Of a stretch of 64,000 nucleotides of DNA, positions 1,832-62,618 are shown one piece after another. The notes below the pieces were generated by a model that saw only the letters and a program-made list of their open reading frames with translations, did no database searches and was not told the DNA's origin. The stretch lies in the sequence record MT446408.1; one strand, written 5' to 3'. The position numbers and the translations under genes are program-made. The stretch is from Escherichia virus TH35. How positions within the stretch are numbered: position 1 is the first letter of the stretch; every line of letters starts with the position of its first letter.

Positions 1832-1990
1832 TGTTGACGTAAATTTACGAAAAATAAAACTGAAAATCAGTTTAATTAAAGTGGCATTGCCGCCATAGTT
1901 TTTAGTTGCTACTGGCGGCGACTGAAGGCATAATTAAGTTATCCCAAACGGGGAATATAAAATAAACTAATTTATTTAAGGACTGTGAAT

Positions 1991-2830
1991 ATGGCCGAAG
2001 CAATCAAAGTATTATCTAAAGAAGAAAAACAAGCAGCCGCAGCAGAACGTCGTCGCGTGGCTGAAGAAAAACGCCTGGCTAAAAAGAAAGAAGCCGAAGA
2101 AAAACGCCAGAAGCGTGAGCAGGAAAAACAAGCCAAGCGTGAAGAAGCTGCGCTGAAACGCAAGCAGGCTGCTGATGAGAAGGCTCAGAAGCGTGCTGAA
2201 GAAGCAGCTAAGAAAGCTAAAGAGCGTGCAGAAAAGGCTGCTGCTAAGAAAGCAGAGCGTGAAGCCGCTAAAGCAGCAAAAGAAATCGAAAAGGCAAAGG
2301 CTAAAGAAGAAGCCAAGCGCCTGAAAGCTGAGCAGGCTGCGGCCAAGAAAGCAGAGCGTGATCAAGCCCGTGCTGCAGCGAAGGCCGAAAAAGAGAAGGC
2401 CAAAGAAGAAGCTAAAGCGAAACGCAAGGCAGAGCGTGAAGCTGCTAAGATTGCGGCGAAAGAAGCTGCAGAACAGCAGAAAGAACAGCGTAAGAAAGAA
2501 GCTGAAGAACGTCGCAAAGCCATCGCAGAACGTAAGGCTGCTAAAAAGGCAAACGGTCAGCGTCGTGCAAAAGCCACTCACTTCATCTACACTGGCAATG
2601 GCCTGAGCCAGCCGCAAGAGCATTCCACCCGTGGACGCGTTCTGGCGGCGATCAAAGAAGGCGAAGTTGGCGTGGCGCAGTCTATCGATGAGCTGGGCGA
2701 AAAAGTTAAAGATCAACTGTTTGGCGCTTCCGTTCGCTCCTACCTGAGCAAGCTGGAAGAGATGGGCCACATCGAGTTTGTCGATGTTGAATCCAACGAC
2801 GATGCCGAAGACGGTGATCAAGCGGAATAA
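1991..2830 (+). CDS. Lys/Ala/Glu-rich low-complexity charged protein with small acidic C-terminal domain
   Basis: ATG 1991 with AAGGA RBS (track start 1985 is GTG); about 200 aa of KAE repeats then HFIYTGNGL...DDAEDGDQAE; promoter-like TTGCTA-17-CATAAT upstream, terminator downstream. Confidence 0.65.
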   Translation: MAEAIKVLSKEEKQAAAAERRRVAEEKRLAKKKEAEEKRQKREQEKQAKREEAALKRKQAADEKAQKRAEEAAKKAKERAEKAAAKKAEREAAKAAKEIEKAKAKEEAKRLKAEQAAAKKAERDQARAAAKAEKEKAKEEAKAKRKAEREAAKIAAKEAAEQQKEQRKKEAEERRKAIAERKAAKKANGQRRAKATHFIYTGNGLSQPQEHSTRGRVLAAIKEGEVGVAQSIDELGEKVKDQLFGASVRSYLSKLEEMGHIEFVDVESNDDAEDGDQAE

Positions 2831-2856
2831 CCTGTAGGACGGTTATAGCGGTAATT

Positions 2857-2884
2857 GACCCACACTTGTTGTGGGTCTTTTTTT
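2857..2884 (+). terminator. rho-independent terminator
   Basis: hairpin GACCCACA-cttgtt-GTGGGTC followed by T7 run. Confidence 0.6.
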
Positions 2885-2969
2885 CGTCTGTACTAAATAG
2901 AAATGACTTGTTGCTGTAAAATAATTTAGCTATTATACTTCTCATATCACCCACAAAGGACAAATGAAC

Positions 2970-3959
2970 ATGAAACAACCTGTAATGATTATCGGCGGCG
3001 GTTTGGCAGGACTTATTACCGCGTGTCACTTCCCGAACTCCATTGTGTACGAAGCAGGGGAACGAGCGCCACAGCACAAGGCGCTGCTACGCTTTCGCGG
3101 CGAAGAAGTAAGCCGTATTACCGGAATCCCTTTTAAGGCCGTGACAGTCGATAAGGCTGTGTATTTTCGTGGTAACTACTATCACGACCACTGCCCGATT
3201 AACCTTGCCAACATGTACTCTATGAAAGTCACCAACCAGTTTGGCAGCCGCTCAATCATGAAGCTTCAAACCGCTACGCGCTACATAGCGCCGGATGACT
3301 TTTATGATCAACTTGTCGATAAGCTTGGCGACCGTATATTCTTCAATACTCCGGTCGACACCCTCTGCGGCTATAGCGAGACGCCAATCATCAATACATC
3401 GCCGCTGCCCGTCATGATGAAGCTTGCTGGCATTGATCAAAAGCTCGACTTCTCGTTTGATAAGGCAAATATACGCGTTTATCGTTTTAAGATTAAGCGC
3501 AAGTGTGAACTGTATCAAACAATTTACTTCCCTGACTATTCTGTAAGGACTTACCGCGCATCAATTACTGGTGACACGCTGATTATCGAAACAATTCCAT
3601 TGGTAAGCGTCAGCGCGGCAGCAGTTGAAGCCGCTGGCGGCATTACCCGTTATCGCGACATGAAGTTGCGTGCAGAAGTGGACGAAGTTCTGACCGCTTT
3701 TGGTCTTTCATGGAATGACATCTCTTTGGAAGAAGTTGAAAAGGTTGACCAGAAGTATGGCAAGATTGTCGACATTCCTAAAGACTTGCGCCACGCCTTA
3801 CTGCTCCAGCTGACTATGGATTTGAACGTGTTTAGTGTCGGTCGATTTGCTACATGGCGCAACATCTTGCTTGATGACGTAGCTCATGACCTTGTTGAAG
3901 TTGAAAAACTCATCAAAGCAAATAACTATCAAAAATTTGCTTATATTGCTAATAAATAA
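2970..3959 (+). CDS. FAD/NAD(P)-binding Rossmann-fold oxidoreductase
   Basis: N-terminal GxGxxG dinucleotide-binding motif VMIIGGGLAGL; start taken at second ATG (2970) for RBS spacing, track start 2964. Confidence 0.6.
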   Translation: MKQPVMIIGGGLAGLITACHFPNSIVYEAGERAPQHKALLRFRGEEVSRITGIPFKAVTVDKAVYFRGNYYHDHCPINLANMYSMKVTNQFGSRSIMKLQTATRYIAPDDFYDQLVDKLGDRIFFNTPVDTLCGYSETPIINTSPLPVMMKLAGIDQKLDFSFDKANIRVYRFKIKRKCELYQTIYFPDYSVRTYRASITGDTLIIETIPLVSVSAAAVEAAGGITRYRDMKLRAEVDEVLTAFGLSWNDISLEEVEKVDQKYGKIVDIPKDLRHALLLQLTMDLNVFSVGRFATWRNILLDDVAHDLVEVEKLIKANNYQKFAYIANK

Positions 3960-4004
3960 TTTGCTTTCTGCTTCAATGAGAGTATACTTTAATCATTGAA
4001 GCAG
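3960..4004 (+). promoter_or_regulatory. sigma70-like promoter with 12-bp inverted repeat bracketing the -10
   Basis: TTTGCT(3960-3965)-17 bp-TATACT(3983-3988); palindrome CTGCTTCAATGA 3968-3979 / TCATTGAAGCAG 3993-4004. Confidence 0.4.
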
Positions 4005-4025
4005 AACTCATAAGAGGAAATGAAG

Positions 4026-4472
4026 ATGAAACGCATCACTGGAATCGCGCTTGCCGCAACTGCTATTCTCGGAACCATGTATATGGAAGCGACTGAAGCC
4101 GCTGTCCGTACTTCCGATTCAATCGCTGTTTACGATTGCGAAGCGATGGACGGCAAGACCGCAGCGACGACTGGCGCAACAATTACCACTTACATCGGTG
4201 TGAACGAGCAAGAAGGTCTGAATATTCAGATTCAGGGATTCACCGGAAAAGGTGCCAACCGGACTCCGTGGATGCAGCGTTTCACTTTCGTTCAGCCTCG
4301 TTCAACTGGCGGCTTTATCAACCTGATTGGTGAAAACCGTTCTGGTGCAGAAATCTTTACATCAATTAGTTCTAATAATGAACCAAAGAAAAGTTTTCAG
4401 TTGCTTTATAACGCACAATTCGTTTATCATTGCACCTTCTCTGGTGATCAGCAACTAGTTAACTACCGTTAA
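4026..4472 (+). CDS. secreted/periplasmic protein of unknown function
   Basis: N-terminal signal peptide MKRITGIALAATAILG...ATEAA; AAGAGGA RBS 7 nt upstream of ATG 4026 (track start 4020). Confidence 0.6.
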   Translation: MKRITGIALAATAILGTMYMEATEAAVRTSDSIAVYDCEAMDGKTAATTGATITTYIGVNEQEGLNIQIQGFTGKGANRTPWMQRFTFVQPRSTGGFINLIGENRSGAEIFTSISSNNEPKKSFQLLYNAQFVYHCTFSGDQQLVNYR

Positions 4473-4485
4473 TAGGATAATTAAA

Positions 4486-5289
4486 ATGAAAGTTGAATTA
4501 ATTCGATACACCCAAGATGCACTTGACCTTTTGCTGGAAACAAAGAATACGCGCATGACTGGTAAGCCAGTCTCTGAGATGACAGAATCAGAGAAGCAAG
4601 AGCACTGGCGCTACATGCTTGACACCATCAAGTCACCTTTCGACTTTGTTGACTATATCTTTGACATCACTGATGTATCAAAGAATATGACTCATCAGAT
4701 GGTGCGCACACGAACAGGTGCATATCAAGAACGCACAAGCCGCGCTCAGGAGTCGTCAGCATTTGATGCGATTCGTCCTGCCAAATTTACTTACCCAGAG
4801 GATGATCCAAAGGGATGGACTCGTCATGACGAGAAGGCTGCTGAACTGGCAGAGAAATGGGATGATGCAATGGCAACCATTGACGCCCTATACCAAGAAC
4901 TTCGCGCGGCTGGCGCAGAGATTCAAGATGCACGTGCCGTGTTGCCTTCTAATATGCAAACGCATATCATGGCAAAGTTTAATTTGCGCACCCTGCAGCA
5001 AATGGCCTCTAACCGCTTGTGCACACGTACTCAAGGCGAGTATCAAGAAGTATTCCGTGCAATGGTTGCGGAAGTCCTTAAGGTGCACCCGTGGGCTAAT
5101 CCTTTACTACAGCCGCAGTGCATCGGTATGGGTAAGTGCGCATTCCCTCGTCACGGTAAGGCCCATTGCCCATGGTATCGTGATTGGATGGATACCACTG
5201 CACAGCAAGAAGAATTACGCATTCAGTTTTGGAATGCAATGCCAATCACCAATAATCCAGTGGCCAAAGATGGAGTATCAAAAGGATGA
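4486..5289 (+). CDS. thyX: flavin-dependent thymidylate synthase-like protein (ThyX family), non-canonical RTR motif
   Basis: ThyX-like blocks PFDFVDYIFDI, ARAVLPSNMQTHIMAKFNLRTLQQM and C-terminal HCPW; signature reads RTR-x7-T instead of RHR-x7-S. Confidence 0.7.
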   Translation: MKVELIRYTQDALDLLLETKNTRMTGKPVSEMTESEKQEHWRYMLDTIKSPFDFVDYIFDITDVSKNMTHQMVRTRTGAYQERTSRAQESSAFDAIRPAKFTYPEDDPKGWTRHDEKAAELAEKWDDAMATIDALYQELRAAGAEIQDARAVLPSNMQTHIMAKFNLRTLQQMASNRLCTRTQGEYQEVFRAMVAEVLKVHPWANPLLQPQCIGMGKCAFPRHGKAHCPWYRDWMDTTAQQEELRIQFWNAMPITNNPVAKDGVSKG

Positions 5290-6158
5290 GTATCAAAAAT
5301 AACCAAATCTTAAACGTATTCGACCTTGACGGAACTCTGTTTGATGACCGTTGGCGCTTAGACCGCATCAAGGTGGCAGGTCCGTTGTCAGACTATGATG
5401 ATTATCACAGCGGTATTGGTTATGATCAGTTCTATCCTCACATTGCATCAGCAGTAGAGTCGGCATCTCTTCGCGGTGAGGCGGTTGAATATTGGACTGC
5501 AAGGCCAGAAAAATACAGACAAGTGACTTTTGAACGTCTGGACAATGTTTTTCCTTTTGATGAATTTACAATCAAGATGAGAGACTATGGCGACAAACGT
5601 CCATCAACTATTATGAAATCTGCATGGCTATCGCACGCTTTGCGGCACGGCGATTATCGAATCATCAATGTATTCGACGACCGACAAGACGTACTCGCGC
5701 GGATGCAAGATGAAGCATTGTGTTATAATTCCGTTGCTCAAAATAAAATCGCTTTTACATTTAATCTTTGCAAGGCAGGTGAAGTGGTGCAACAATTAGC
5801 AATTGATCCAAGCGCAACAGGGCAAGAAGAGACTAAGTCTGTGGAAGTTGAACAATCTCCGGCAACTGCCGCCGATATTCTTGATGCAATGGCAGCAACC
5901 TTCCGTGAGCGCAACGCTGTCTATGGCGATAACGCTGTGATGGTAGGTCAGGTTATGCAAGTGCTTTTCCCTAATGGCGTGACGTTGAAAACGCCGGAAG
6001 ACTACCACATGTGGCATCTGTTCGAGCTTAAGATTGTCAAGCTTACACGCTTCGCAATCAGCGGCCTGAAGCACGAAGACTCTATACACGATGATGGTGT
6101 TTACAGCGCCATGTGTGAACGTCTTGTTAACACCCATAATATTAATTTCAATAAATAG
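5286..6158 (+). CDS. HAD-superfamily phosphatase with C-terminal domain of unknown function
   Basis: HAD motif I FDLDGTLFDD near N-terminus; ATGA overlap with thyX-like gene. Confidence 0.6.
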   Translation: MSIKNNQILNVFDLDGTLFDDRWRLDRIKVAGPLSDYDDYHSGIGYDQFYPHIASAVESASLRGEAVEYWTARPEKYRQVTFERLDNVFPFDEFTIKMRDYGDKRPSTIMKSAWLSHALRHGDYRIINVFDDRQDVLARMQDEALCYNSVAQNKIAFTFNLCKAGEVVQQLAIDPSATGQEETKSVEVEQSPATAADILDAMAATFRERNAVYGDNAVMVGQVMQVLFPNGVTLKTPEDYHMWHLFELKIVKLTRFAISGLKHEDSIHDDGVYSAMCERLVNTHNINFNK

Positions 6159-51761: not shown

Positions 51762-52142
51762 ATGTCAAATAAGAATGATTCTATTCACAATACATATACT
51801 AAAGGCAGCGGAATGGCCTTTGGTGGCAGTATCAAAATTGACGTTCCATCTTGCGATTCTGATGGATTGGAAGTCGGCAACCGCGACTTAACATGGGTTT
51901 TACGTCGCCAATCTGATTTAGAAGAGAAGCTGGAAAATATTGAGCGTTCTCTCGAAAGTTTGCGCGATCAGCTTTTTGGTTGTTCTGAAGATGATTCACA
52001 ACCTGGACCATATGCAGCCAATCATGGTTTGATTGATAATATGCTTGCTATTACCGCTCGATCAATTGGTAAAACTGTGTCCATTGAATCATTGATCAGC
52101 CAGATTGCGGATGGCTTTGGTGATGCCCATAAGAGCGAATAG
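51762..52142 (+). CDS. hypothetical protein (126 aa)
   Basis: start at ATG 51762 after AAAGG RBS (track start 51732). Confidence 0.45.
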   Translation: MSNKNDSIHNTYTKGSGMAFGGSIKIDVPSCDSDGLEVGNRDLTWVLRRQSDLEEKLENIERSLESLRDQLFGCSEDDSQPGPYAANHGLIDNMLAITARSIGKTVSIESLISQIADGFGDAHKSE

Positions 52143-52212
52143 TGGGTGGATGTTGCTTTAACCGTGAATCGTGGGTCGCTGTGGCGGCCCTTTATTTTGC
52201 CTGCCGCGCAGG

Positions 52213-52325
52213 AGTGTACTGCAAATTTACTGTGGGCACAAAATAGTACGGTACTGTCTAGGACTTTTTCTTTGAAAAGTTAGTGGACCAAATGTGTCGT
52301 ATTTTGATTAGTGTACTGCAAATTT
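52213..52325. repeat. two copies of AGTGTACTGCAAATTT, variant of the ATAGTGCAAAT family
   Basis: identical 16-mers at 52213-52228 and 52310-52325. Confidence 0.6.
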
Positions 52326-52414
52326 CATCAAGTACCAAAACGCACCAAAAGACCCATGCCCTAAAAACCACACGAACGCAATAATCAATCGCCGTTACAG
52401 TTTCCAGCGTTACA

Positions 52415-52674
52415 ATTCGAAAGCGAATGATTCGATACACAATAATATGAAGCATAATGATTCGAAAGCGAATGATTGCGTGTAGTATAATATCGGTGGG
52501 GATTATTCTAGATGCATGTAATTTCGCATGCGTACTATTTTCGGACGAAGGGTCGGCATATTCCTCGTTTTAGTTCGGAACGAAGGGAAAGTTTTGCGCC
52601 TTTATAAAACAACGACTTACGCAACCCGCCCTAACGGTCCGATATAGGTGTCTATATAAAACAAGGACTTACGC
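52415..52674. repeat. short direct repeats in a non-coding stretch
   Basis: ATTCGAAAGCGAATGATT at 52415-52432 and 52460-52477; TATAAAACAA[C/G]GACTTACGC at 52603-52622 and 52655-52674; recurring CGAAGGG words. Confidence 0.5.
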
Positions 52675-52840
52675 GATGTTCTCCATTTAACGTAATACCC
52701 GTTATGCGAACTAAGGAGCATCTCGAAGAAGATTATGAGGCGACGAAGGGAAGGATAAAGGAGTTTTCGCGGAGAAGCGCATCGAGATAGGGACGAAGAA
52801 AAGCCGCGACTAAGCGCGGCCTATTAGTAACGGAAGGATA

Positions 52841-53131
52841 TTATAAGGAGACAATTTTAAAATAAGTTACTTCGCCGCCGAGTTGCGGTACAGCGATATA
52901 TTCGCCGCCGATTTCGGTAATCGTATAAACGAAGCCGTTAATCGTTACGCGATAGGATACGATGTCCTCGTCGCGATACTTGTAAAGGTCGAGGAAGTTG
53001 ATCGGCTCATAAATAGACTCGATAATCGCGTCGACGTTAGAGAGATAAACGCTCTCTAAGGTTTCGCCAAATACGTTAGAGTTTTCGGAAGTTTCGACGC
53101 GAGCGGAACGGATAGCGGCTAAAGTAATCAT
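52841..53131 (-). CDS. small protein, paralog family member A (96 aa)
   Basis: MITLAAIRS... similar in N-terminus and overall pattern to 53767-54051 and 53239-53541; AGGAG RBS. Confidence 0.5.
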   Translation of the reverse strand: MITLAAIRSARVETSENSNVFGETLESVYLSNVDAIIESIYEPINFLDLYKYRDEDIVSYRVTINGFVYTITEIGGEYIAVPQLGGEVTYFKIVSL

Positions 53132-53155
53132 AATAATCTCCTAGTTGGTCGGGCG

Positions 53156-53176
53156 GGTAGCGACCTATTCGCTACC
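53156..53176 (-). promoter_or_regulatory. conserved 5' UTR stem-loop (copy 1)
   Basis: on coding strand GGTAGCG-AATAGGT-CGCTACC preceded by GGGATGAG; same loop and architecture as copy at 53721-53741 with compensatory stem changes. Confidence 0.5.
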
Positions 53177-53198
53177 TCATCCCCTCTCGATATAAAAC

Positions 53199-53227
53199 AT
53201 TATAGTATTAGTGTACGAAGAAGTAAA
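53199..53227 (-). promoter_or_regulatory. sigma70-like promoter for 52841-53131
   Basis: reverse strand TTTACT (53227-53222) - 17 bp - TATAAT (53204-53199). Confidence 0.55.
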
Positions 53228-53238
53228 GCACTTTTTCG

Positions 53239-53541
53239 TTATTTTGCGATAAAATGTTTATAAGCTTTATCGCCTTCTACGTCGATATACTCGACGATAA
53301 TTAACGCTTCGTCGCGAGGCGTAACCGTCTCGATAAGGGTAACGGCTTCGTCGTCGGTCTTCGCGAAGCGGATGGCGCTACGTTCGGCGTATTTCATATC
53401 GTCGAAGGAAAGGCCGACGAAGGCGAACGCGCGGACCTTAATAGCGGTCCCGTCTAGTTCCGCGTTAACGGCTTTAAGAAGAGAAGCGACGGTTAAGCGG
53501 TCTTCGTCGTAAGTAAGGATAGAAGAGATTAAAGTGGTCAT
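53239..53541 (-). CDS. small protein, paralog family member B (100 aa)
   Basis: start set at ATG 53541 after GGGAG RBS (track start 53598 is TTG and overlaps the promoter); MTTLISSILTYDED... Confidence 0.45.
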   Translation of the reverse strand: MTTLISSILTYDEDRLTVASLLKAVNAELDGTAIKVRAFAFVGLSFDDMKYAERSAIRFAKTDDEAVTLIETVTPRDEALIIVEYIDVEGDKAYKHFIAK

Positions 53542-53597
53542 AATAAAACTCCCGATGCTAGTAGAAGGAAGGGCCATCGCCCGTCTCGATATAAACA

Positions 53598-53625
53598 AGT
53601 ATACGCGAGTGTACGAAGAAGTAAA
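53598..53625 (-). promoter_or_regulatory. sigma70-like promoter for 53239-53541
   Basis: reverse strand TTTACT (53625-53620) - 16 bp - TATACT (53603-53598); near-identical to promoter at 53199-53227. Confidence 0.5.
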
Positions 53626-53679
53626 GAAAAAAGATAAAATAATTTATCTCATTTTTATCGAAAAAGTGCTTTACTTTTT

Positions 53680-53707
53680 TCTACACTATATTATAATGTA
53701 CTCATAT
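53680..53707 (+). promoter_or_regulatory. sigma70-like promoter for 53767-54051
   Basis: TTTACT (53680-53685) - 16 bp - TATAAT (53702-53707); shares CTTTACTT...TACAC core with the two reverse promoters. Confidence 0.55.
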
Positions 53708-53710
53708 CGG

Positions 53711-53748
53711 GACGGGATGAGTTAACGAATAGGTCGTTAACGCCCGTC
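53711..53748 (+). promoter_or_regulatory. conserved 5' UTR stem-loop (copy 2)
   Basis: GACGGGATGAG-GTTAACG-AATAGGT-CGTTAAC-GCCCGTC immediately upstream of AGGAG RBS. Confidence 0.5.
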
Positions 53749-53766
53749 GAGAACTAGGAGTTTAAA

Positions 53767-54051
53767 ATGGCTATTCTTAACGTTTCTTCCATCCGTAACG
53801 CTATCGTCGAGAACTACGGCGTAAAACAAATTTTATCCGAAGTCTACGCCGCGAACGTAGACCAAACTATCGAGGCAGGTGGGGTAACGGTCGCCGAGGC
53901 TTTTAAACTTTACGCGGCGCTACCGGAATCGGACCGCGAAGCCTTCGAAGTAAACGTTAACGGATACTTCTTCGAAGCGGTCGAAATCGGTAACACCTTA
54001 CTCGTTATGGGCGAAGAAGAATTTGAGACCTTCTCCCTCGTCGAAGCGTAA
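53767..54051 (+). CDS. small protein, paralog family member C (94 aa)
   Basis: MAILNVSSIRNAIVE...; paralogous to 52841-53131 (shared NVD..IE, VNG.F, EIG, E.E.TF positions). Confidence 0.5.
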   Translation: MAILNVSSIRNAIVENYGVKQILSEVYAANVDQTIEAGGVTVAEAFKLYAALPESDREAFEVNVNGYFFEAVEIGNTLLVMGEEEFETFSLVEA

Positions 54052-54131
54052 GAGAGGATTTTTAGAGCGTCGTGCGCGACGCTTTAATAAAATTCTTTCG
54101 CGCCTAGCGCCCTAACAAATAGGAGTTTATT

Positions 54132-54758
54132 ATGGTTAGCTTAAATCGTTTCTCGACTAGCGGCGACGTTATCGCAACTAAGACCGCCGACCTCGTTGCA
54201 TTTTATAATGCAAATTCCGGTTCGAAGCCGATTAAGAAATTTTCGGACCGCCGGACCGCCGAGGCTCGCGTAATAGCGTTAATCGAGTCCTTAAACGCGC
54301 TCGATGAGCCGTCCAACGAATCGCCCATCCCAGACGCGAAGTCGCGCGAGGAAGTGCCCAGCGATGTAAAAACGCATAAGGCGCGTGCGGTCGTTAAAAA
54401 GTCCGAGCCGACCCAGGAAGAACTCGACGCGATGACCGACGAAGAGTATGAAGCCTTCGTTAAGAGCGGTTTAAACGATAGTGCAAATTGCGTAGTGCAA
54501 AATGGAACTCCTTCCCATCGCCGTTCAAATAGCGAAGGTATTGCGAAAAGTTGGGATAACAAGGAAGTGGCGCAAAAGCGTCTCACGCGTAACGGCGTTA
54601 TGGTCGAGGGTGTAGGCGAGTTCAAATCGGTCCGCGTAGCGTTTGCTGCGCTGGGCTTACCGGATAGCAAGCACATTCGCTTCCGCATGAAGCTTAAAGA
54701 AGCTGGACGATTGAACTTTGAGTTCGGCAACAAGTCCTACACCTTCCAGATCATCTAA
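54132..54758 (+). CDS. hypothetical protein (208 aa)
   Basis: ORF with AGGAG RBS; hairpin at 54064-54081 upstream; contains first ATAGTGCAAAT copies. Confidence 0.5.
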   Translation: MVSLNRFSTSGDVIATKTADLVAFYNANSGSKPIKKFSDRRTAEARVIALIESLNALDEPSNESPIPDAKSREEVPSDVKTHKARAVVKKSEPTQEELDAMTDEEYEAFVKSGLNDSANCVVQNGTPSHRRSNSEGIAKSWDNKEVAQKRLTRNGVMVEGVGEFKSVRVAFAALGLPDSKHIRFRMKLKEAGRLNFEFGNKSYTFQII

Positions 54759-54808
54759 TCGAATGGCGGCCCTTCGGGGTCGCTTTTCATAGTGCAAATT
54801 GGTGGCTT

Positions 54809-55072
54809 ATGAATACGCTTATTCTTATCGCTACGTTGTCCATCGGAAGTGGTCGCACCTTATCCCTTTATGATCATAGTGCAAATTGCGCTTACCCAAC
54901 GCGCGTTGCGGTGATAGTTAATAGTGCAAATCGAATGCTATTCGAGACTTGTTGGCGGGTCGATAACGAGAAAGGTCGGGTAGTCTTAGGTTATAGTGCA
55001 AATCTGCTGGTGGAGTCGTTCGATTGGACGGTTGAAGGCCGTAAATTGTTACGGAAAGTGACTAAAAGATGA
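54809..55072 (+). CDS. doubtful ORF spanning three in-phase repeat copies
   Basis: 87-aa ORF whose HSANCA, NSANRM and YSANLL segments are each encoded by an ATAGTGCAAAT copy; may be non-coding. Confidence 0.3.
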   Translation: MNTLILIATLSIGSGRTLSLYDHSANCAYPTRVAVIVNSANRMLFETCWRVDNEKGRVVLGYSANLLVESFDWTVEGRKLLRKVTKR

Positions 55073-55133
55073 CTTATAATAATACACTTTCTAACGCGTT
55101 TATGGTTGTAACCTTCCCCGTCGTATTACCGAT

Positions 55134-55173
55134 GGCCCTAGAAGTGGAGAAAATGTGTTCTAGGGCCGTTTTA
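55134..55173 (+). terminator. rho-independent terminator for the forward unit
   Basis: GGCCCTAGA (55134-55142) / TCTAGGGCC (55159-55167) 9-bp stem followed by GTTTTA. Confidence 0.5.
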
Positions 55174-55186
55174 TAGTGCAAATTGG

Positions 55187-55675
55187 CTAGTGGCGGGAGA
55201 ATTGCTCACCTTCTTTGGCCGCCTCTCCAAAATCCTTGTAGAAATCGTCCATAGAACGGCCCATTTTACTATTGCCGTTTTCATCAATCATCGTGATGCC
55301 GTAGATGATATTCAGTTCACGAATAGCATTAAGCTTGGCTGATGCCGCGACTTCTGGATCACGCACAAGCTTGACCAAATTGTGAATTGCACCTTTTACG
55401 CTCCACAAATCCTTTAGCGGCATTTCTTCCATACGCTTTTTGAAGCGCATTTTGTAGTACGGATTGCGTTGTGCGCAAAGGATTCGCTGGCCAGTGTAGT
55501 TATCCGTTGCAACTTCCATTCCAAATACTAGTGCAAAAGCTGCGCGCATGTCATGGCCCTGAATAACAAGGTCAATGAACTCATCGAATAAGGCCTGATT
55601 GTGCTCTGCAAATCGCGGGTCTTCAAAGTCTTCAGGCATCGCTACATAGTCTTGACTCATAGTGCAAAATCCCAT
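55187..55675 (-). CDS. hypothetical protein (162 aa)
   Basis: ORF; start codon region itself formed by two ATAGTGCAAA copies (reverse strand ATGGGATTTTGCACTATG). Confidence 0.5.
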   Translation of the reverse strand: MGFCTMSQDYVAMPEDFEDPRFAEHNQALFDEFIDLVIQGHDMRAAFALVFGMEVATDNYTGQRILCAQRNPYYKMRFKKRMEEMPLKDLWSVKGAIHNLVKLVRDPEVAASAKLNAIRELNIIYGITMIDENGNSKMGRSMDDFYKDFGEAAKEGEQFSRH

Positions 55676-55889
55676 AGTGCAAATTAATAGTGTGAATTAT
55701 ACAATGGATGAACATTATATTCAAGTGCAGATTGATGTTCATTATGGCTATAAACGTACACAAATCATATTGCGGAATGAATAGCGGACCGTGGTGCGTG
55801 GTGTACTGTTTGATACGTATAAAAGAAATCCATCCCTTTCGCCGCTTGTTATGCAAATCAATGACTTAGCCGCTGCTGGCTGGTTTAAG

Positions 55890-56230
55890 CGTATCATGAC
55901 GTATCATCCGTATTGCCGCAAGTCTTTGTTTTTACTTATATCTTACGGATAATACGTATAAATATAAGTTTAGTATAAGTATGAGGATATGAAAAAAATT
56001 AATTTAAATGTTTTTAAAATGGAGTTTATTTATTTTTGGAGTTTTATATATAACGATGCCCAGTTTTATCCGTATCATCCGTAAGATTAATGTACAAGCC
56101 AGGCGCGGCAAGGGCTGTACACTGATACGGATAAAAAAACATGACGTATCATGACGTAAGGGTGTACCACTTTGGAAAAGAGGAATCCAGGAACGGTGCG
56201 GCCTGCAGCCATGATACGCTTAAATTTTAG
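55890..56230. repeat. second iteron-like region, related to 39660-39930
   Basis: GTATCATGACGTATCATCCGTAT 55891-55913; AT-rich core 55960-56060; TTTTATCCGTATCATCCGTAAGATT 56064-56088 shares 21-mer ATCCGTATCATCCGTAAGATT with 39864-39890; GATACGGAT 56124-56132. Confidence 0.6.
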
Positions 56231-56490
56231 CCGTATTTTAGGCGTATCAAATGTGTGCAAACAACACGTTTCACGACACTAAAATTTCAATCCATAGATA
56301 ATTCCTAACAAACACCACGGACCAATAGACACGATCTATGAAATATATTTCTAAATATTTCCGCACAATTAATAAATAAAACACAACCTCATAATTATTC
56401 CATCGCAAAACACGACCCAAACGACAAAAGGCCGCATAAAGCGACCCATTGCACACATTCCATTCTTCAAAACACACAAATCAATGTTCT

Positions 56491-57027
56491 TTATCCGCTG
56501 ACCTTCCAGTCACCATTCCTTTTATCACGCTTCTTTAACTCCGTTTTAATGACATTATTATCCACAATAACTCCTAAACGGCGCAATTCACACATGACCT
56601 TGTGGCGATATTGTCGAAGCTTTTTGACGTCCATTGTGCTCCTTGAATAAGATAGTACCATAAAAATAATATCATCATTCATTTTGTAACGCATACAAGT
56701 TTTATAATGCCTTTTGAAAATTGCATTTACGGCATCTGTTTTCAGCAATTCATCCATTAATTCTGGATTCCCTTCACAGACGTTAATGACCCATTCATCC
56801 CTTGATTTTGCCGCTTTCAATCCCCTTAGAGTTAATAACTCATATAATGCCTTTCTGCACTTAGAGCAATCACCAATTGTCAAACTTGATTCCATTTCTT
56901 GAGCATCGGTCAACTCTGTATTGCCTTTGTTGAATTTACCGCACAAGCTGATTTGCTCGCCGTTGTCAAAGTAGTGGGCAAGTTTTGAGTATCGCGGCTT
57001 GCCCCATCCTGCAACGTTACCCATCAC
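56491..57027 (-). CDS. hypothetical Cys-rich protein (178 aa)
   Basis: ORF with paired-Cys motifs CGKFNKG...CSKCRK. Confidence 0.5.
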   Translation of the reverse strand: MMGNVAGWGKPRYSKLAHYFDNGEQISLCGKFNKGNTELTDAQEMESSLTIGDCSKCRKALYELLTLRGLKAAKSRDEWVINVCEGNPELMDELLKTDAVNAIFKRHYKTCMRYKMNDDIIFMVLSYSRSTMDVKKLRQYRHKVMCELRRLGVIVDNNVIKTELKKRDKRNGDWKVSG

Positions 57028-59006: not shown

Positions 59007-59303
59007 TTAAGGTTGGATGTCATAATAGTATTTTCCTTCTCTCATATTCTTTTTAATTCCTTGTAATGCCTCGCGCCCCTTCTTTGTCATCACCACAAAT
59101 GAATATAGTCTTGGGTCTTTTTCTCCTTGAACCGCCCAATCAACAAGCCCAAGGCGAAACAAAACAGGGATTGATGGTGCATTGACGTCATAAAACGGCG
59201 ATGGGCGCTTCTCATGAGCCTTCTTGCAATCGCCACGCAACATATATCGCGTCCCGTCTTCCATACGGTATAATGTTTGGACTTGTGCTAAACTTAGTTT
59301 CAT
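59007..59303 (-). CDS. hypothetical protein (98 aa)
   Basis: start set at ATG 59303 (ATGA overlap with upstream stop); track start 59318. Confidence 0.45.
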   Translation of the reverse strand: MKLSLAQVQTLYRMEDGTRYMLRGDCKKAHEKRPSPFYDVNAPSIPVLFRLGLVDWAVQGEKDPRLYSFVVMTKKGREALQGIKKNMREGKYYYDIQP

Positions 59304-59485
59304 TGCTGTCTTCTCCAAACTGCATGTAATGTTTTCTGGTCAAACTTGGACAGCGTTTCACGCTCCGAAGCCTTAAGGAAGCGCGTGCCAAAGAACAGCA
59401 TGCCTTGCGGCGTTTTAACGAGAGACACGCCTTTGTTACGGTAAAAGCTTACCATTGCTGAAGCGTTATGGACTTCGGTACTCAT
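59300..59485 (-). CDS. hypothetical protein (61 aa)
   Basis: ORF, ATGA-coupled. Confidence 0.4.
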   Translation of the reverse strand: MSTEVHNASAMVSFYRNKGVSLVKTPQGMLFFGTRFLKASERETLSKFDQKTLHAVWRRQQ

Positions 59486-59787
59486 AAATTCCCTCCAAAC
59501 GTTGCAACACGGATGGCGCGACGCTCAAATGCCAACATAGGATTAAGGCCGTCGGCACAAGTGATGAATGCATCATCAGCGACAAGGTCGTAACCGCCGA
59601 CGCAAAGAATAAATGTATCATCACTATTCTTTAATAGCATGATTGCCGCTACACCGTCCTTTTTATTCTTAAAGAAGAATACTGGCTCACCGCCTTCTTG
59701 AGTCTCCTTGAACTCTTTAATGGCACCACAGTTCACGGCTTCTTGCAAAGTGTTCAAAATCTTTTTCTTCATTGCTTCGGTACTCAT
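59482..59787 (-). CDS. hypothetical protein (101 aa)
   Basis: ORF, ATGA-coupled. Confidence 0.45.
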   Translation of the reverse strand: MSTEAMKKKILNTLQEAVNCGAIKEFKETQEGGEPVFFFKNKKDGVAAIMLLKNSDDTFILCVGGYDLVADDAFITCADGLNPMLAFERRAIRVATFGGNL

Positions 59788-60086
59788 AGCTCACCCTCTT
59801 TAAAAACAAATCCGCTGATAACAGATTGATAGTAGTTCACGCCGCGCACCTCTACAACCTTGCACCGATGAGCCTGACCCTTGTATTCTATCCACCAGAC
59901 TTCCATGTCAGGCAAGTTGTTGCGACGCGTCAACCAGCCGTGAAACAGCTTGTATGTTTCGCCGACCTTAAAAGGTTTCAGCGTACCGTAAGAATCAACC
60001 TTGAATGCGCAGACAACATCTTTGCTGTCTTTGTGTACAGCGTCATGAAATAATCCGCTTCTGCCAAACCTTTCGTCGTAACTCAT
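59784..60086 (-). CDS. hypothetical protein (100 aa)
   Basis: start set at ATG 60086 (MSYDERF...) 8 nt after AAGGAG; track start 60146. Confidence 0.45.
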   Translation of the reverse strand: MSYDERFGRSGLFHDAVHKDSKDVVCAFKVDSYGTLKPFKVGETYKLFHGWLTRRNNLPDMEVWWIEYKGQAHRCKVVEVRGVNYYQSVISGFVFKEGEL

Positions 60087-60133
60087 AATCATTTCTCCTT
60101 TGCTTGATGAACTAAGTATAATGCAGGCAAATA

Positions 60134-60163
60134 AAAAGGCAAGCATTTAGCTCACCTTTTTGA
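60134..60163 (-). terminator. rho-independent terminator (reverse strand), copy 1 of a duplicated element
   Basis: reverse transcript AGGUGAGC-UAAAU-GCUUGCCU (two G-U pairs) followed by UUUUU; identical 30-mer at 61663-61692. Confidence 0.5.
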
Positions 60164-60164
60164 A

Positions 60165-60425
60165 TTAAATATTCTTCGCCTCTTCGTGAAGGCCGACCGA
60201 CCTTAGTTTGCGCCGCAAGTAAGCTTTCTTTTCGCTCTCCCGCCCTTTCGGAGTAACGCGCCAGCGTAATGTGTTCTCCAGATTCTTGCGTCGGTTGTGC
60301 TCGTCGAGTAGCTCTACCAGTGCCTTTGCGTCGTCGAGTGTTAACACCACGGGCCGCGACCCATTAACGGCTTGTCGAAGCTTCCGCGCGGCAACGGCTA
60401 ACTTAGTCATCGGACCCTTGTTCAC
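60165..60425 (-). CDS. hypothetical basic protein (86 aa)
   Basis: ORF, ATGA-coupled. Confidence 0.45.
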   Translation of the reverse strand: MNKGPMTKLAVAARKLRQAVNGSRPVVLTLDDAKALVELLDEHNRRKNLENTLRWRVTPKGRESEKKAYLRRKLRSVGLHEEAKNI

Positions 60426-60805
60426 GGCAACTCCTTATTCATCGGTGTGATAGACAACACCTTCACTTCAGTGATGTCACGGTTGTATTCGCGCTTGATT
60501 TGTAGAATCTGAGATTGGATGCGCGCAATAAAGTGCGGCGTGATTCCTTCCTTAACGTTAATCCAAGCCGCAAGCTGAATTGAGTCGATGTCGCTTCTCA
60601 ATGTTGTTGGACAGTAAATCGTACTTGGTGCGCCGTAAGAACGTTGCACTTCATAAGCAGAAGCTTTGAATGACACCAAGAACATTCTTTCTTCAAGTTG
60701 GCTTTCGCTATTAGGATTCTTATCACAGTTAGTCATGTGCTGCACAAACTCTTCGTGTGGAAGGTGCATCACATCGTGGCAGTAAGGGCAACGCTTCATT
60801 CTCAT
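60422..60805 (-). CDS. putative zinc-finger protein, tandem paralog 1 (127 aa)
   Basis: N-terminus MKRCPYCHDVMHLPHEEFVQHMTNCDKNP (C-x2-C...H...C). Confidence 0.5.
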   Translation of the reverse strand: MRMKRCPYCHDVMHLPHEEFVQHMTNCDKNPNSESQLEERMFLVSFKASAYEVQRSYGAPSTIYCPTTLRSDIDSIQLAAWINVKEGITPHFIARIQSQILQIKREYNRDITEVKVLSITPMNKELP

Positions 60806-60806
60806 T

Positions 60807-61091
60807 TCACACCTCGTGCAAGAAAGATAAAGATTTAATGCAGACTATTTCTTTGCCAGACACTTCCTTGATTGTATCCAGCAGGCTTTCATACGCCTTT
60901 TTGGTGATCACCATTTCTTTCGTAGTGACGATGCCTGTTGCGCCTGAGCCGTCTTCTGCTTCCGCATGATAATGATAATAGTAACGTGTCGAGTTTTCAG
61001 GATTAGCATCACAAACGTTAACGTGATGTAAATATTCTTCAGCAGTAAGCCGCATCGTGGACAAGCAATGGGGACATCTTTGCATCTTCAT
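60807..61091 (-). CDS. putative zinc-finger protein, tandem paralog 2 (94 aa)
   Basis: N-terminus MQRCPHCLSTMRLTAEEYLHHVNVCDANP, same pattern as 60422-60805. Confidence 0.5.
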   Translation of the reverse strand: MKMQRCPHCLSTMRLTAEEYLHHVNVCDANPENSTRYYYHYHAEAEDGSGATGIVTTKEMVITKKAYESLLDTIKEVSGKEIVCIKSLSFLHEV

Positions 61092-61306
61092 TTTGCATAC
61101 TCCATAGCATATTGCTGCAGCTTGAATGCAGCATGTTGTAATTGTTTACGACGCTCATTCAATTCTTTCCATTCTTCTTCAGGACAATTTAGAGAGTATG
61201 CCTTGTTTGCAATCTTGATTAGTGATAAATGCGTTTGTTGAAAGCGCGATACCATGCGCAACTCATTACGCTTATTGAATGGCAACTTACCCAGCGCGGC
61301 GTTCAT
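61088..61306 (-). CDS. hypothetical protein (72 aa)
   Basis: start set at ATG 61306 (GAGGTG RBS, ATGA overlap); track start 61324. Confidence 0.45.
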   Translation of the reverse strand: MNAALGKLPFNKRNELRMVSRFQQTHLSLIKIANKAYSLNCPEEEWKELNERRKQLQHAAFKLQQYAMEYAK

Positions 61307-61620
61307 AATTGCACCTCGACACACGATTCACTAGCCTCGAAGCTCCAGCCTTCCAGACCGACTTCGCCGCAGTAACGCGCCATTGCACGCTCGTCCAAAA
61401 ACCAACCGTGATATTGCTCTATATACTTTGGTTTTTCCGAATAACAGTGAATGACTCCGTCGTCATCAATGGCCACGTAACGCGTGCCAGGAGCGACTGG
61501 GACAACAACGTCTGGGTGGGCGATTGGCCAAGGCTTGATGTGTACAGCTGTGTCCAACTTAACGTTTGGCACCCTTGAAAGGTCTTTGTAAGCACCCTCG
61601 TCCATTCCTAAGTAAATCAT
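61303..61620 (-). CDS. hypothetical protein (105 aa)
   Basis: ORF. Confidence 0.45.
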   Translation of the reverse strand: MIYLGMDEGAYKDLSRVPNVKLDTAVHIKPWPIAHPDVVVPVAPGTRYVAIDDDGVIHCYSEKPKYIEQYHGWFLDERAMARYCGEVGLEGWSFEASESCVEVQL

Positions 61621-61662
61621 GATTCACCTCACTTGTTAGTCTTGATGAAAAGAGTATAAGTA

Positions 61663-61692
61663 TTGATAAAAGAAAAGGCAAGCATTTAGCTC
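61663..61692 (-). terminator. rho-independent terminator (reverse strand), copy 2
   Basis: same 30-mer AAAAGGCAAGCATTTAGCTCACCTTTTTGA as 60134-60163. Confidence 0.5.
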
Positions 61693-61705
61693 ACCTTTTT
61701 GATAT

Positions 61706-62038
61706 TCATTTTACATAGTGGAGTAGGTCAATCTCTATCTGGTCACGCGTCCTTGTTATCTTTGTATCACCCGTCCGGTGAGAGAATCGATAGATGGTCA
61801 ACTCTCCGTCATTTCCTCTATCGAACTTCATGCTGGCTAGTCGACAAGCATATATTGCATTAAGCTTTTCGCCATAAGACAGAAGATTAAAAGTCAATAC
61901 TGTGTTGCCCATTCTTGCATTTTCTTTTATGCACTTCTTTAAGAAGTAATAAGAATCAGCAAAAGCATTGGCCTTCTTCCACACTTCTTTTATTAATCCA
62001 CGCTCATGCGCGACGAGTATCTGATCACGGGTCATCAC
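61706..62038 (-). CDS. hypothetical protein (110 aa)
   Basis: ORF. Confidence 0.45.
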   Translation of the reverse strand: MMTRDQILVAHERGLIKEVWKKANAFADSYYFLKKCIKENARMGNTVLTFNLLSYGEKLNAIYACRLASMKFDRGNDGELTIYRFSHRTGDTKITRTRDQIEIDLLHYVK

Positions 62039-62274
62039 TGCACCTCTGTTATTCCGGTAATTCGAACGATGACGGTGTCATCCAAATTGAACTGCTGCCG
62101 CGCGACGCGTTTGATGTCGTCCTTAAGGTCAGAAATCAACTCCCTTGTTAACACTGTACGCTCTGAAACGTCATATTGAACGTCAAAGGTATACTCGCCA
62201 TAGAATACCGCGCCATTCGGAAGTTGCACGACATAGAATGCCATATACATAGCGTTGATATAATCTTCCATCAT
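62035..62274 (-). CDS. hypothetical protein (79 aa)
   Basis: start set at ATG 62274 (ATGA overlap with upstream stop); track ORF extends to 62385 into the upstream gene. Confidence 0.4.
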   Translation of the reverse strand: MMEDYINAMYMAFYVVQLPNGAVFYGEYTFDVQYDVSERTVLTRELISDLKDDIKRVARQQFNLDDTVIVRITGITEVQ

Positions 62275-62618
62275 ACATTCTCCACGGGTCGACGGATGAG
62301 TTTGCGTAATCCTTCGGGCCATACCTTCTTGATCACGGCTTTCGCTGGGCTGGATGAAAGTTTCTTCAGCTTCAATAGGACACATCCTTCATCATCGTTC
62401 GGTTGTACCTGGATAACGACGCGCGCTTGTCGGTCGATGACCATGACATCGCCAATGCGAATGTCTTTTACCAACACGCCCATCTCCTTCGTGCCGGATA
62501 CGCCGTTGATGTGATCAAAACCTTTTCGCAGCGACTTCACTCTTTCTTCTCCTGCCATTTCTCTGACACGTTTCTTAATCTCTGCGCCAAACAACACTTC
62601 GTCTTTAACATGAGCCAT
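62271..62618 (-). CDS. hypothetical protein (115 aa)
   Basis: ORF. Confidence 0.45.
   Translation of the reverse strand: MAHVKDEVLFGAEIKKRVREMAGEERVKSLRKGFDHINGVSGTKEMGVLVKDIRIGDVMVIDRQARVVIQVQPNDDEGCVLLKLKKLSSSPAKAVIKKVWPEGLRKLIRRPVENV

Follow-up and report, generated by a model that had tools for sequence, protein, structure and literature searches.

Three mobile promoter-leader cassettes, two with a covarying 5' hairpin, in the terminal repeat of Escherichia virus TH35

Fast promoter escape is known for the strong early promoters of phages T5 and T7, and the host-takeover module of phage SPO1 combines a long terminal repeat with divergent strong host-type promoters and small early genes. 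In T4-type phages, elements of about 100 bp called PeSL join a strong sigma70 promoter to a polyG...polyC stem-loop and are associated with the shuffling of orphan genes (PMC2839356). In this report, we analyze a stretch of 64,000 nucleotides (nt) from Escherichia virus TH35 (MT446408.1; the whole stretch is called the window below) and, within it, three small genes (A, B and C; Table 1), each of which follows a sigma70-type promoter and a leader containing a hairpin.

An earlier reading of the same sequence (the original prediction) described three paralogous genes with a structured leader of their own. We replace this description with three mobile cassettes of the T7 A1 type that drive at least two unrelated families of orphan genes. 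On balance, we favor the view that A, B and C are the first genes of three immediate-early promoter-leader cassettes of ~110 bp, located in the direct terminal repeat (DTR) of the phage, and that the 5' hairpin stabilizes the mRNA. The anatomy of the cassettes, their copy number, the covariation of their stems, their homology and the shuffling of the genes behind them are demonstrated here, whereas the timing, the start sites, the stabilizing role and the function of the proteins are inferred. Absent from the original prediction were the location in the DTR, the close resemblance to T7 promoter A1 and to the cassettes that jumbo phages carry in many copies, and the nature of the compositional bias of the region.

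The window comes from a Wifcevirus. There are 28 sequenced phages with 92-96% identity to it (including Mansfield, WFC, WFH, ECML-117, FEC19 and Bas98-101), and nearly all of these belong to Wifcevirus where the record gives a taxonomy. Wifcevirus comprises myoviruses of E. coli and Shigella with genomes of ~68 kb that are distant kin of Pbunavirus (PMC11990801). In the WFC record, one end repeats the other over 3784 bp without a mismatch, and blastn placed the two boundaries of this repeat on the window. The resulting DTR is 3.75 kb long and contains all of the promoters, hairpins and genes A, B and C. The Mansfield record carries a DTR predicted by PhageTerm, and a terminal repeat of ~3.7 kb has been reported for WFC and WFH (PMC6563267).

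The three promoters proposed by the original prediction are real consensus matches of the sigma70 type and are nearly identical to one another: TTTACT is followed after 16 or 17 nt by TATAAT or TATACT, with 9-10 of the 12 hexamer positions matching sigma70. The promoter is indeed present in three copies. The core CTTTACTTNTTNNTACAC occurs exactly three times in the 64 kb, where 0.11 occurrences are expected, and exactly three times in the complete genome of Bas99 (68 kb). The regions upstream of A and C align over ~110 nt, and that upstream of B shares with them the promoter and the first transcript bases and then diverges. In P_A, a 7-nt discriminator leads to ATCGAGAGGG (53191-53182), a 10-mer with a single occurrence in the window. 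After a discriminator of equal length, positions +1 to +10 of T7 A1 match it at 10 of 10 positions; in this register (the T7 A1 start is annotated at position 498), P_A would start at ~53191. By count, the match to ATCGAGAGGG is 9/10 for P_B and 8/10 for P_C (ATCGGGACGG). An imperfect 10-bp inverted repeat, ACGAAAAAGT-GCTTT-ACTTCTTCGT, spans the -35 element of P_A (53215-53239) and, less well, that of P_C (53661-53679); P_B lacks it. The sequence AGATAAA-ATAA-TTTATCT lies between the divergent promoters P_B and P_C.

Leaders A and C contain hairpins with perfect 8-bp arms and a 5-nt loop, where the original prediction had placed them. To this upper stem, RNA folding adds a lower stem, GGGA/UCCC or GACGGG/CCCGUC, that varies by cassette type and stays pairable. 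In leader A, a G-run is predicted to pair with a C-run, and in leader C, the arms are GACGGG (53711-53716) and CCCGUC (53743-53748). Terminators aside, these two are the sole pair of hairpins of this kind in the compositionally biased island described below. When a covariance model was made from the pair, it matched the window at no other place and had no match in distant relatives, and the covariance models of Rfam 15 (nut/boxB, put, leaders and others), searched against both strands of 52000-56500, gave 0 matches at E<=1. Leader B also has a G/C-rich hairpin, which the original prediction missed; in relatives it takes other paired forms (GAGAGGC/GCCUCUC, AGGGGC/GCCUCU and GGGAG/CUCCC). No U-tract follows the hairpin of leader A, B or C on either strand, and separate terminators follow genes A and C. 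Because it lies in the transcribed leader and lacks a U-tract, the leader stem-loop is not a terminator.

A two-codon open reading frame (mini-ORF) overlaps the 5' arm of the hairpin, reading AUG-AGG-UAG in leader A (53170-53178, - strand) and AUG-AGU-UAA in leader C (53717-53725, + strand). Its ATG is among the few TGs kept in the island, and GATG stands at an equal distance in leader B. The mini-ORF is unlikely to be the element under selection, because the AUG has been lost in 4 of 25 haplotypes.

As the original prediction noted, the stems of A and C differ by two double substitutions that preserve pairing. Across ~70 copies of the hairpin from ~40 genomes, the upper stem takes three fully paired versions (GGTAGCG/CGCTACC, GTTAACG/CGTTAAC and GCTAACG/CGTTAGC), and three different single substitutions produce G.U pairs. 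Over 11 haplotypes, pairing holds in 96.6% of cells. For two of the pairs, both sides have changed, with three pair types at one of these, and the covariation score was reached in 0 of 500 column shuffles. When the stem alignment is slid to other registers, pairing falls to 12-55%. The covariation and the G.U intermediates thus uphold the claim that the hairpin is selected for pairing. Since the upper stem is kept by compensatory changes, we conclude that it acts as folded RNA.

A symmetric operator had been offered as the alternative, and more broadly the inverted repeat could act in DNA, either as an operator that lies downstream of the promoter and binds a dimeric regulator or as a cruciform or recombination signal for shuffling. 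The element, a perfect 8-bp palindrome with 5-bp spacing, spans about +16 to +36, recombination junctions coincide with the cassettes, the authors of the PeSL study raised a recombination idea for GGGG...CCCC stems (PMC2839356), and the imperfect repeat mentioned above also overlaps the -35 elements of P_A and P_C. We nevertheless consider a role in DNA quite unlikely. Both stem versions coexist in one genome, where the half-sites have changed symmetrically into two sequences, which an operator for a single protein does not require. The three independent intermediates pair as G.U in RNA but would be G.T mismatches in a DNA hairpin, and the loop (the spacer of the putative operator) is asymmetric and nearly invariant. 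For these reasons, RNA pairing is favored over a DNA operator. A 69-amino-acid (69-aa) "transcriptional regulator" that lies beside gene A in some relatives is absent from the window and has no family match.

Similar cassettes exist in unrelated phages. With sensitive BLAST searches, the 25-nt core TATAATGTTTTATATCGAGAGGGGA is found at 100% identity in many records of Asteriusvirus, at up to 17 places per record; an identity this exact speaks for shared ancestry with the cassettes of these jumbo phages or for transfer between them and Wifcevirus. In phage vB_Ec-M-J (L294), six cassettes match the -10/start-region pattern within 27.6 kb, all inside the annotated 21.5-kb DTR. They read AAAAAGT-ACTTGCA-...-TATAAT-GTTTTAY-ATCGAGAGGGG, and 4 of the 6 fold as GAGGGG(AA)-loop-(UU)CCCCUC from ~+6. 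One has the loop AAUAG and continues with CCTAAC (as in Wifcevirus), a Shine-Dalgarno sequence and ATG. Leader A can be read as such a unit whose G-run and AAUAG are separated by an additional, inserted upper stem. The DTR of vB_Ec-M-J (1-21525) holds ~53 small genes with gaps of ~80-100 bp, several of which carry a cassette like P_A. No description of the Asteriusvirus cassettes was found in the literature searched.

Leaders A and C, T7 A1 and the Asteriusvirus cassettes all have a predicted 5' hairpin in which a G-run within the start region pairs with a C-run further downstream. The start region with a hairpin after it also occurs in an early-promoter cluster of a 99-kb viral contig from IMG/VR (L209). 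Its tandem strong promoters (150-500) lie near the contig end; the first starts with TTATATCGAGAGGG and has a long GAGAGGGCGG...CCGCCTCTC hairpin containing GATGAG, as in the Wifcevirus leaders. Leaders of a distant relative (L154) and at least one leader of Pantoea phage PA1 carry other hairpins after the start region that they share with Wifcevirus. On these sequence comparisons, the cassette is the Wifcevirus variant of a widespread unit of early promoter and leader.

The recurrence of the loop bears on a different explanation, in which the A/C hairpin is a site for an RNA-binding protein that reads AAUAGGU and co-regulates the A and C transcription units through translational repression, shut-off or antitermination. 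We judge this to be rather unlikely. The loop shows 1 change over 7 positions, compared with ~10 substitutions over 14 positions of the stem, and AAUAG or GAAUA also tops the hairpins of T7 A1, one Asteriusvirus cassette and one PA1 leader; that only two of the three leaders carry the loop suggests specific over generic use. Against such a protein, no candidate RNA-binding protein and no Rfam match were found, loop invariance counts for little in so shallow a genus, and leader B and relatives work with unrelated hairpins or none.

Two scans of sequence collections with patterns of 14 bases gave mostly chance matches, which were filtered by script. We gathered ~110 copies of the cassette at 39 loci, drawn from phage records, IMG/VR, ENA and Logan contigs. 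These copies do not bear out the idea that the leader is tied to a gene family: the leader follows the promoter, not the protein, and the cassette precedes four different first genes among relatives. Depending on the genome, the first gene after P_C is gene C (94 aa), an unrelated-looking gene of 104 aa or gene D (208 aa), which in ECML-117-type genomes comes directly after the P_C leader. The junction of this deletion or insertion lies within TAGGAGTTTA, a sequence common to leader C and the region upstream of D. More generally, junctions lie in the leader or the Shine-Dalgarno region and mark insertion, deletion and replacement. Phage F13 has a duplicated, truncated P_A cassette, L144 keeps P_A as far as the -10 element and then has a foreign gene, and RCIP0363 and ECML-117 have additional small ORFs. 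In the natural Wifcevirus variant L142 (Logan ERR11172834, a 68-kb contig, 1600-3200), the cassettes and genes A and C are absent, and there are canonical TTGACT-17-TATAAT promoters and a 193-aa gene of normal composition. The suggestion of a plastic region of small orphan genes is therefore sound, and we grade the early expression of these genes as probable only. Our search for a transcriptome for the genus Wifcevirus found none.

The three genes exist as first drawn, and relatives annotate them with ribosome-binding sites (RBSs). The Shine-Dalgarno sequences of the cassettes are strong and lie 6-8 nt from the ATG. Leader B holds an ATG (53575-53577, - strand) that shares the reading frame of gene B, and a start there would lengthen the protein by 12 residues (MALPSTSIGSFI). 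Among the database clusters, one has a length of 112 aa; the annotated start has the better RBS.

The claim of three paralogues survives for A and C and fails for B. Proteins A and C share 27% identity by BLASTP (E=1e-5), align over nearly their full length with hhalign (probability 91%, E=1e-6) and have an alignment score that was reached by 0 of 2000 shuffles. For B against A and C, the values are at chance: BLASTP E=19 and 22, hhalign probability 0.1-0.2%, and scores reached by 1517 and 1458 of 2000 shuffles, respectively. Gene B has its own homologue in L154, adjoining an A-like gene (0/2000 shuffles reach the score). Because B is at chance against A and C and has this homologue beside an A-like gene, there are at least two protein families. 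The 104-aa protein that replaces C in WFC-type genomes has at best a weak N-terminal similarity to C (8/2000 shuffles).

All homologues of A, B and C come from Wifcevirus-sized contigs. A profile search with the A and C alignment against 1.8 billion representatives returned Wifcevirus proteins and one distant relative (P0040, 36% identity); matches to proteins with Big_13 Ig-like repeats were repeat-summed, and we judged them spurious. Searches of Pfam, PHROGs, NCBIfam and PDB sequences with A, B, C, D and neighboring cassette genes gave nothing informative, and A, B and C have no Pfam, PHROG or PDB matches. The structure prediction suggested with the original prediction was run. The AlphaFold models of A and B are low-confidence (pLDDT ~53); Foldseek against viral structures matched A to its own family only and B to nothing significant.

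These findings bear on the possibility that A, B and C form a three-member paralogous family for host takeover or anti-defense, with the shared leader serving as the family's own regulation. A and C are paralogous, the three products are uniformly small and acidic (pI 4.0-4.7, net charge ~-6 to -12), and Wifceviruses resist all of the restriction systems tested except EcoP1I, with no known mechanism of protection (PMC11990801). However, B shows no sequence relationship to A or C, the leader is linked to the promoter and not to the protein, and no match of A, B or C to a family or to known anti-defense proteins was found, with low-confidence models and uninformative fold searches. We therefore regard a three-member family of this kind as very unlikely. 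As for anti-restriction DNA mimics such as Ocr and ArdA, A, B and C have a low pI with a net charge of only ~-6 to -12, their models are of low confidence, and family and PDB searches gave no match.

In the mechanism we favor, each cassette consists of an A/T-rich upstream stretch, a host sigma70-type promoter, a conserved start region ((A)TATCGAGAGGG), a G/C-rich stem-loop a few bases from the predicted 5' end of the RNA and a strong RBS, and belongs to a family that includes T7 promoter A1 and the one-gene cassettes of Asteriusvirus terminal repeats. In the Asteriusvirus units, the predicted 5' hairpin pairs the G-run with the C-run, and Wifcevirus leaders A and C have that hairpin plus the 8-bp upper stem with the AAUAG motif on top. 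Host RNA polymerase would presumably fire the promoters once the repeat enters the cell, and the start region would favor fast promoter escape. The 5'-proximal hairpin would shield early mRNAs from decay that depends on the 5' end, and it may insulate the RBS. The outcome would be a fast burst of small acidic proteins, probably host-directed. Finally, the conserved cassettes also serve as homology patches for the gain, loss and swap of first genes.

The early RNA of T7 is processed upstream of gene 0.3. By analogy, the two-tier hairpin could be an RNase III processing site like T7 R0.3 that removes the 5' leader and activates translation of the first gene. Although two stems, one above and one below an internal loop, are present, the predicted total of 12-14 bp is well below the approximately two helical turns typical of substrates, and the versions in jumbo phages and T7 A1 are shorter still, so we hold this role to be highly improbable.

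Several points weigh against a stabilizing hairpin in a widespread early cassette. Start sites, timing and RNA stability are inferred here. A T7-like start would leave 6-10 nt of leader A unpaired ahead of its lower stem, a number above the ideal for a 5' stabilizer. Mismatches disrupt the upper stem in two natural haplotypes (C.A and A.A), two variants of leader B weaken their hairpin, and fold z-scores are modest (-1.5 to -2.4). The genus is shallow, and independent compensatory events are few. Two PA1 cassettes have short leaders without a hairpin, and L142 does without cassettes altogether. The similarity of the whole cassette to T7 A1 is patchy, with a local alignment score that was reached by 145 of 3000 shuffles. 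Because this score alone is not significant, the likeness to T7 A1 could be convergence, and we do not treat homology as settled.

Table 1. Positions of the features discussed, numbered from the first letter of the window.
Feature	Position	Strand	Details
Promoter P_A	53199..53227	-	-35 TTTACT 53227-53222, 17-nt spacer, -10 TATAAT 53204-53199; predicted start ~53191
Promoter P_B	53598..53625	-	-35 TTTACT, 16-nt spacer, -10 TATACT; predicted start ~53590 (ATCGAGACGG)
Promoter P_C	53670..53697	+	-35 TTTACT, 16-nt spacer, -10 TATAAT; predicted start ~53704-53706
Leader A stem-loop	53150..53184	-	Upper stem GGTAGCGA/TCGCTACC (53176-53169, 53163-53156), loop AUAGG; covariance-model match 40.4 bits
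Leader B hairpin	53571..53582	-	GGGC-GAUG-GCCC; placed as in A and C, different sequence
Leader C stem-loop	53711..53748	+	Upper stem GTTAACGA/TCGTTAAC (53721-53728, 53734-53741), loop AUAGG; covariance-model match 42.1 bits
Gene A	52841..53131	-	96 aa, acidic (pI 4.2), orphan, paralogue of C
Gene B	53239..53541	-	100 aa, acidic (pI 4.7), orphan, separate family
Gene C	53767..54051	+	94 aa, acidic (pI 4.05), paralogue of A; absent or replaced in relatives
Gene D	54132..54758	+	208 aa, basic, PHROG 4730 (unknown function)
Shine-Dalgarno AGGAG, gene A	53138..53142	-	6 nt before ATG; read from sequence; RBS in Mansfield
Intrinsic-terminator-like hairpin after gene A	52801..52822	-	Terminator in Mansfield, WFC and WFH annotations
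Terminator-like hairpin after gene C	54066..54095	+	AGCGTCG-TGCG-CGACGCT, then TTTAATAAAATT
DTR	52267..56020		Left virion end 56020, right virion end 52267
TG/CA-depleted island	52450..54350		From ~180 bp off right virion end; all three cassettes, genes A, B and C, 5' end of D
TAGTGCAAATT copies	Starts 52217, 52314, 54206, 54479, 54493, 54790, 54877, 54922, 54994, 55174, 55660, 55675	+	

The cassettes lie in a region that the original prediction called compositionally atypical, which is true of its dinucleotides and not of its GC content, which is unremarkable. In this island, the ratio of observed to expected occurrences (o/e) is 2.0-2.3 for CpG, 1.0-1.4 for TpA and 0.2-0.6 for TpG/CpA, compared with 1.0-1.3, 0.5-0.8 and 0.9-1.3, respectively, in the rest of the window. 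CA/TG is the sole step that is depleted, and CG and TA compensate. The depletion is equal for TG and CA on either gene strand and reaches noncoding DNA. Genes A, B and C have 2-3 TG/CA per 100 nt versus 15 in a neighboring 162-aa gene, and their proteins are almost without His, Gln, Cys, Trp and internal Met. The -35 element TTTACT corresponds to the TTGACT of T7 minus its TG, and the edge of the island falls within gene D. The island is the more surprising result of this work: a dinucleotide step has been almost erased from both strands over 1-2 kb of coding and noncoding DNA, with amino-acid usage reshaped in the process.

The exclusion of TG/CA is common to three lineages of Lindbergviridae, namely Wifcevirus, the Kylevirus PA1 and L154. 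In PA1 (L293), the island (~2700-4950), the cassettes and the gene order are as in Wifcevirus. In L154, the island is at 4200-6100, and the 1.1 kb from 4927 to 6053 has only five TG/CA, of which three belong to start codons and two to promoters. The core of the promoter is identical there, although the proteins are only 36% identical. Homologues of D in other phage lineages have a normal composition and no island, and L142 has a B homologue with 11 TG/CA per 100 nt and uses canonical TTGACT promoters. We therefore rejected the idea that the island is a property of the proteins. Avoidance at the level of start codons or RNA was rejected because TG and CA are equally depleted on either gene strand and in noncoding DNA. 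A mutational bias that destroys TG/CA was also rejected, because variants of this kind are not overrepresented within the genus. Variants that create TG/CA arise there at the chance rate with an unchanged frequency spectrum, so current selection in the E. coli phages is weak or absent. The depletion in Wifcevirus may be partly inherited, with the trait having persisted across deep divergence.

DNA hypermodification is unsupported as a cause: an ordinary ThyX serves as thymidylate synthase, and no gene of the hydroxymethylase, DNA-kinase or DpdA type was recognized. The first-step-transfer repeat of T5 (L173, 1-10219) has a CpG o/e of 1.0-1.8 versus 0.5-0.9 just outside, and its TG/CA is slightly low. 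With only this mild CpG excess and no TG/CA exclusion, T5 was set aside as a counterpart of the island. We found no literature on TG/CA-free islands and no known rule of restriction, modification or expression that predicts one.

Next to the island is an array of the 11-mer TAGTGCAAATT, of which the window has 12 copies with at most one mismatch (52217-55685), all on the + strand and none elsewhere in the 64 kb. The array flanks the island, has no copy in the island core and includes several copies inside coding sequence. The complete genome of Bas99 has 10 copies on one strand (59157-62517), within or at the edge of the region equivalent to the DTR, and same-strand arrays lie beside the island in L154 (3167-4157) and PA1 (5100-5799). 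At every locus examined, 6-12 copies on a single strand adjoin the TG/CA-free island. The array could be a signal for packaging, for stopping entry or for the binding of a regulator. Two exact copies of AGTGTACTGCAAATTT (52213-52228 and 52310-52325), 97 bp apart, flank the inner DTR boundary at 52267, and this pair may be the site at which the terminal repeat is defined. Direct repeats fill the 570-bp noncoding stretch that separates the gene A terminator from the right genome end; at 52400-52840 they include a 43-nt unit (two copies), GACGAAGGG (four copies) and CTTTATAAAACAACGACTTACGC (two copies); each 43-nt unit holds a promoter-like TCGAAA-18-TATAAT/AATAAT. The 162-aa gene (55187-55675, - strand) lies within both the DTR and the TAGTGCAAATT array and is convergent with the P_C operon. 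Its product is annotated in Mansfield as the small terminase subunit (by an HHpred match to Sf6) and has no Pfam match.

We suggest, tentatively, that the island might have been "written" without TG/CA so that the DNA expressed first escapes an agent that recognizes this dinucleotide at the DNA level, in a staged entry resembling that of T5. Such an agent could conceivably be a nuclease that cuts very often, a DNA modification made in a specific context or a protein that binds the step, and it might act while only the terminal segment is exposed or needs transcription. The TG/CA-free recoding and the TAGTGCAAATT array deserve follow-up. In addition, the terminal-repeat module is an obvious place to seek the basis of the restriction resistance of Wifceviruses and of their very fast replication, which has been reported (PMC11990801).

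Among described systems, the pre-early region of T5 resembles the Wifcevirus region in that a long terminal repeat carries small early genes and strong promoters of the host type in divergent orientation. In T5, the "injection stop signal" consists of repeats close to the inner edge of the terminal repeat; the repeat arrays of the window may or may not have such a role. The Wifcevirus repeat is three times shorter, two-step entry is a trait of T5 that is not known for Wifcevirus, and family searches of the window found no homologues of T5 A1, A2 or dmp.

PeSL elements (PMC2839356, PMC4122927) share with the Wifcevirus cassettes the order of an AT-rich stretch, a sigma70 promoter, a stem-loop, a Shine-Dalgarno sequence and ATG. 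Both flank orphan genes and mark junctions of insertion, deletion or replacement among close relatives. They differ in that PeSLs belong to another phage family, in that the Wifcevirus stem-loop is within a transcribed leader without a U-tract and is not a terminator, and in that Wifcevirus has three copies only, all in the DTR.

In Asteriusvirus (vB_Ec-M-J, PBECO4 and 121Q), AAAAAGT lies upstream, and each cassette precedes a small orphan gene, many of them in an annotated DTR. The simple 5' hairpin GAGGGG...CCCCTC of these phages corresponds to the lower stem of Wifcevirus, and there is no upper stem. Unlike in Wifcevirus, the -35 element is CTTGCA or TTGACA and not TTTACT, the copies all point one way, and TG/CA is not depleted (10-14 per 100 nt).

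T7 A1 and the Wifcevirus cassettes are both host sigma70 promoters near a genome end, with a similar upstream block, TTTATC(G)AAAAAG, and, in T7 A1 and P_A, CGAATAG downstream. The T7 A1 leader folds as GGGA..GGC-GAAUA-GCC..UCCC, in which GGGA/UCCC is the outer stem. In T3-like contigs, GGC/GCC is replaced by GGT/ACC, a compensatory change in the inner stem. The -35 element is TTGACT in T7 A1 and TTTACT in Wifcevirus, the spacer and -10 element also differ, and the Wifcevirus hairpin has an extra 8-bp stem. Each Wifcevirus cassette serves a single short unit that has a Shine-Dalgarno sequence to itself, whereas T7 A1 drives a long polycistron that is processed by RNase III. Wifcevirus also has three divergent copies in its 3.75-kb repeat, and its -35 element and surroundings are without TG/CA, unlike those of T7 A1. 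Taken together, these comparisons suggest that strong early promoters, complete with this start region and the hairpin behind it, pass between coliphages that are not related, as prefabricated units for the expression of orphan genes. With a unit apparently common to T7 (A1), Asteriusvirus, Kylevirus and Wifcevirus, the role of the hairpin and start region is testable in the well-studied T7 A1.

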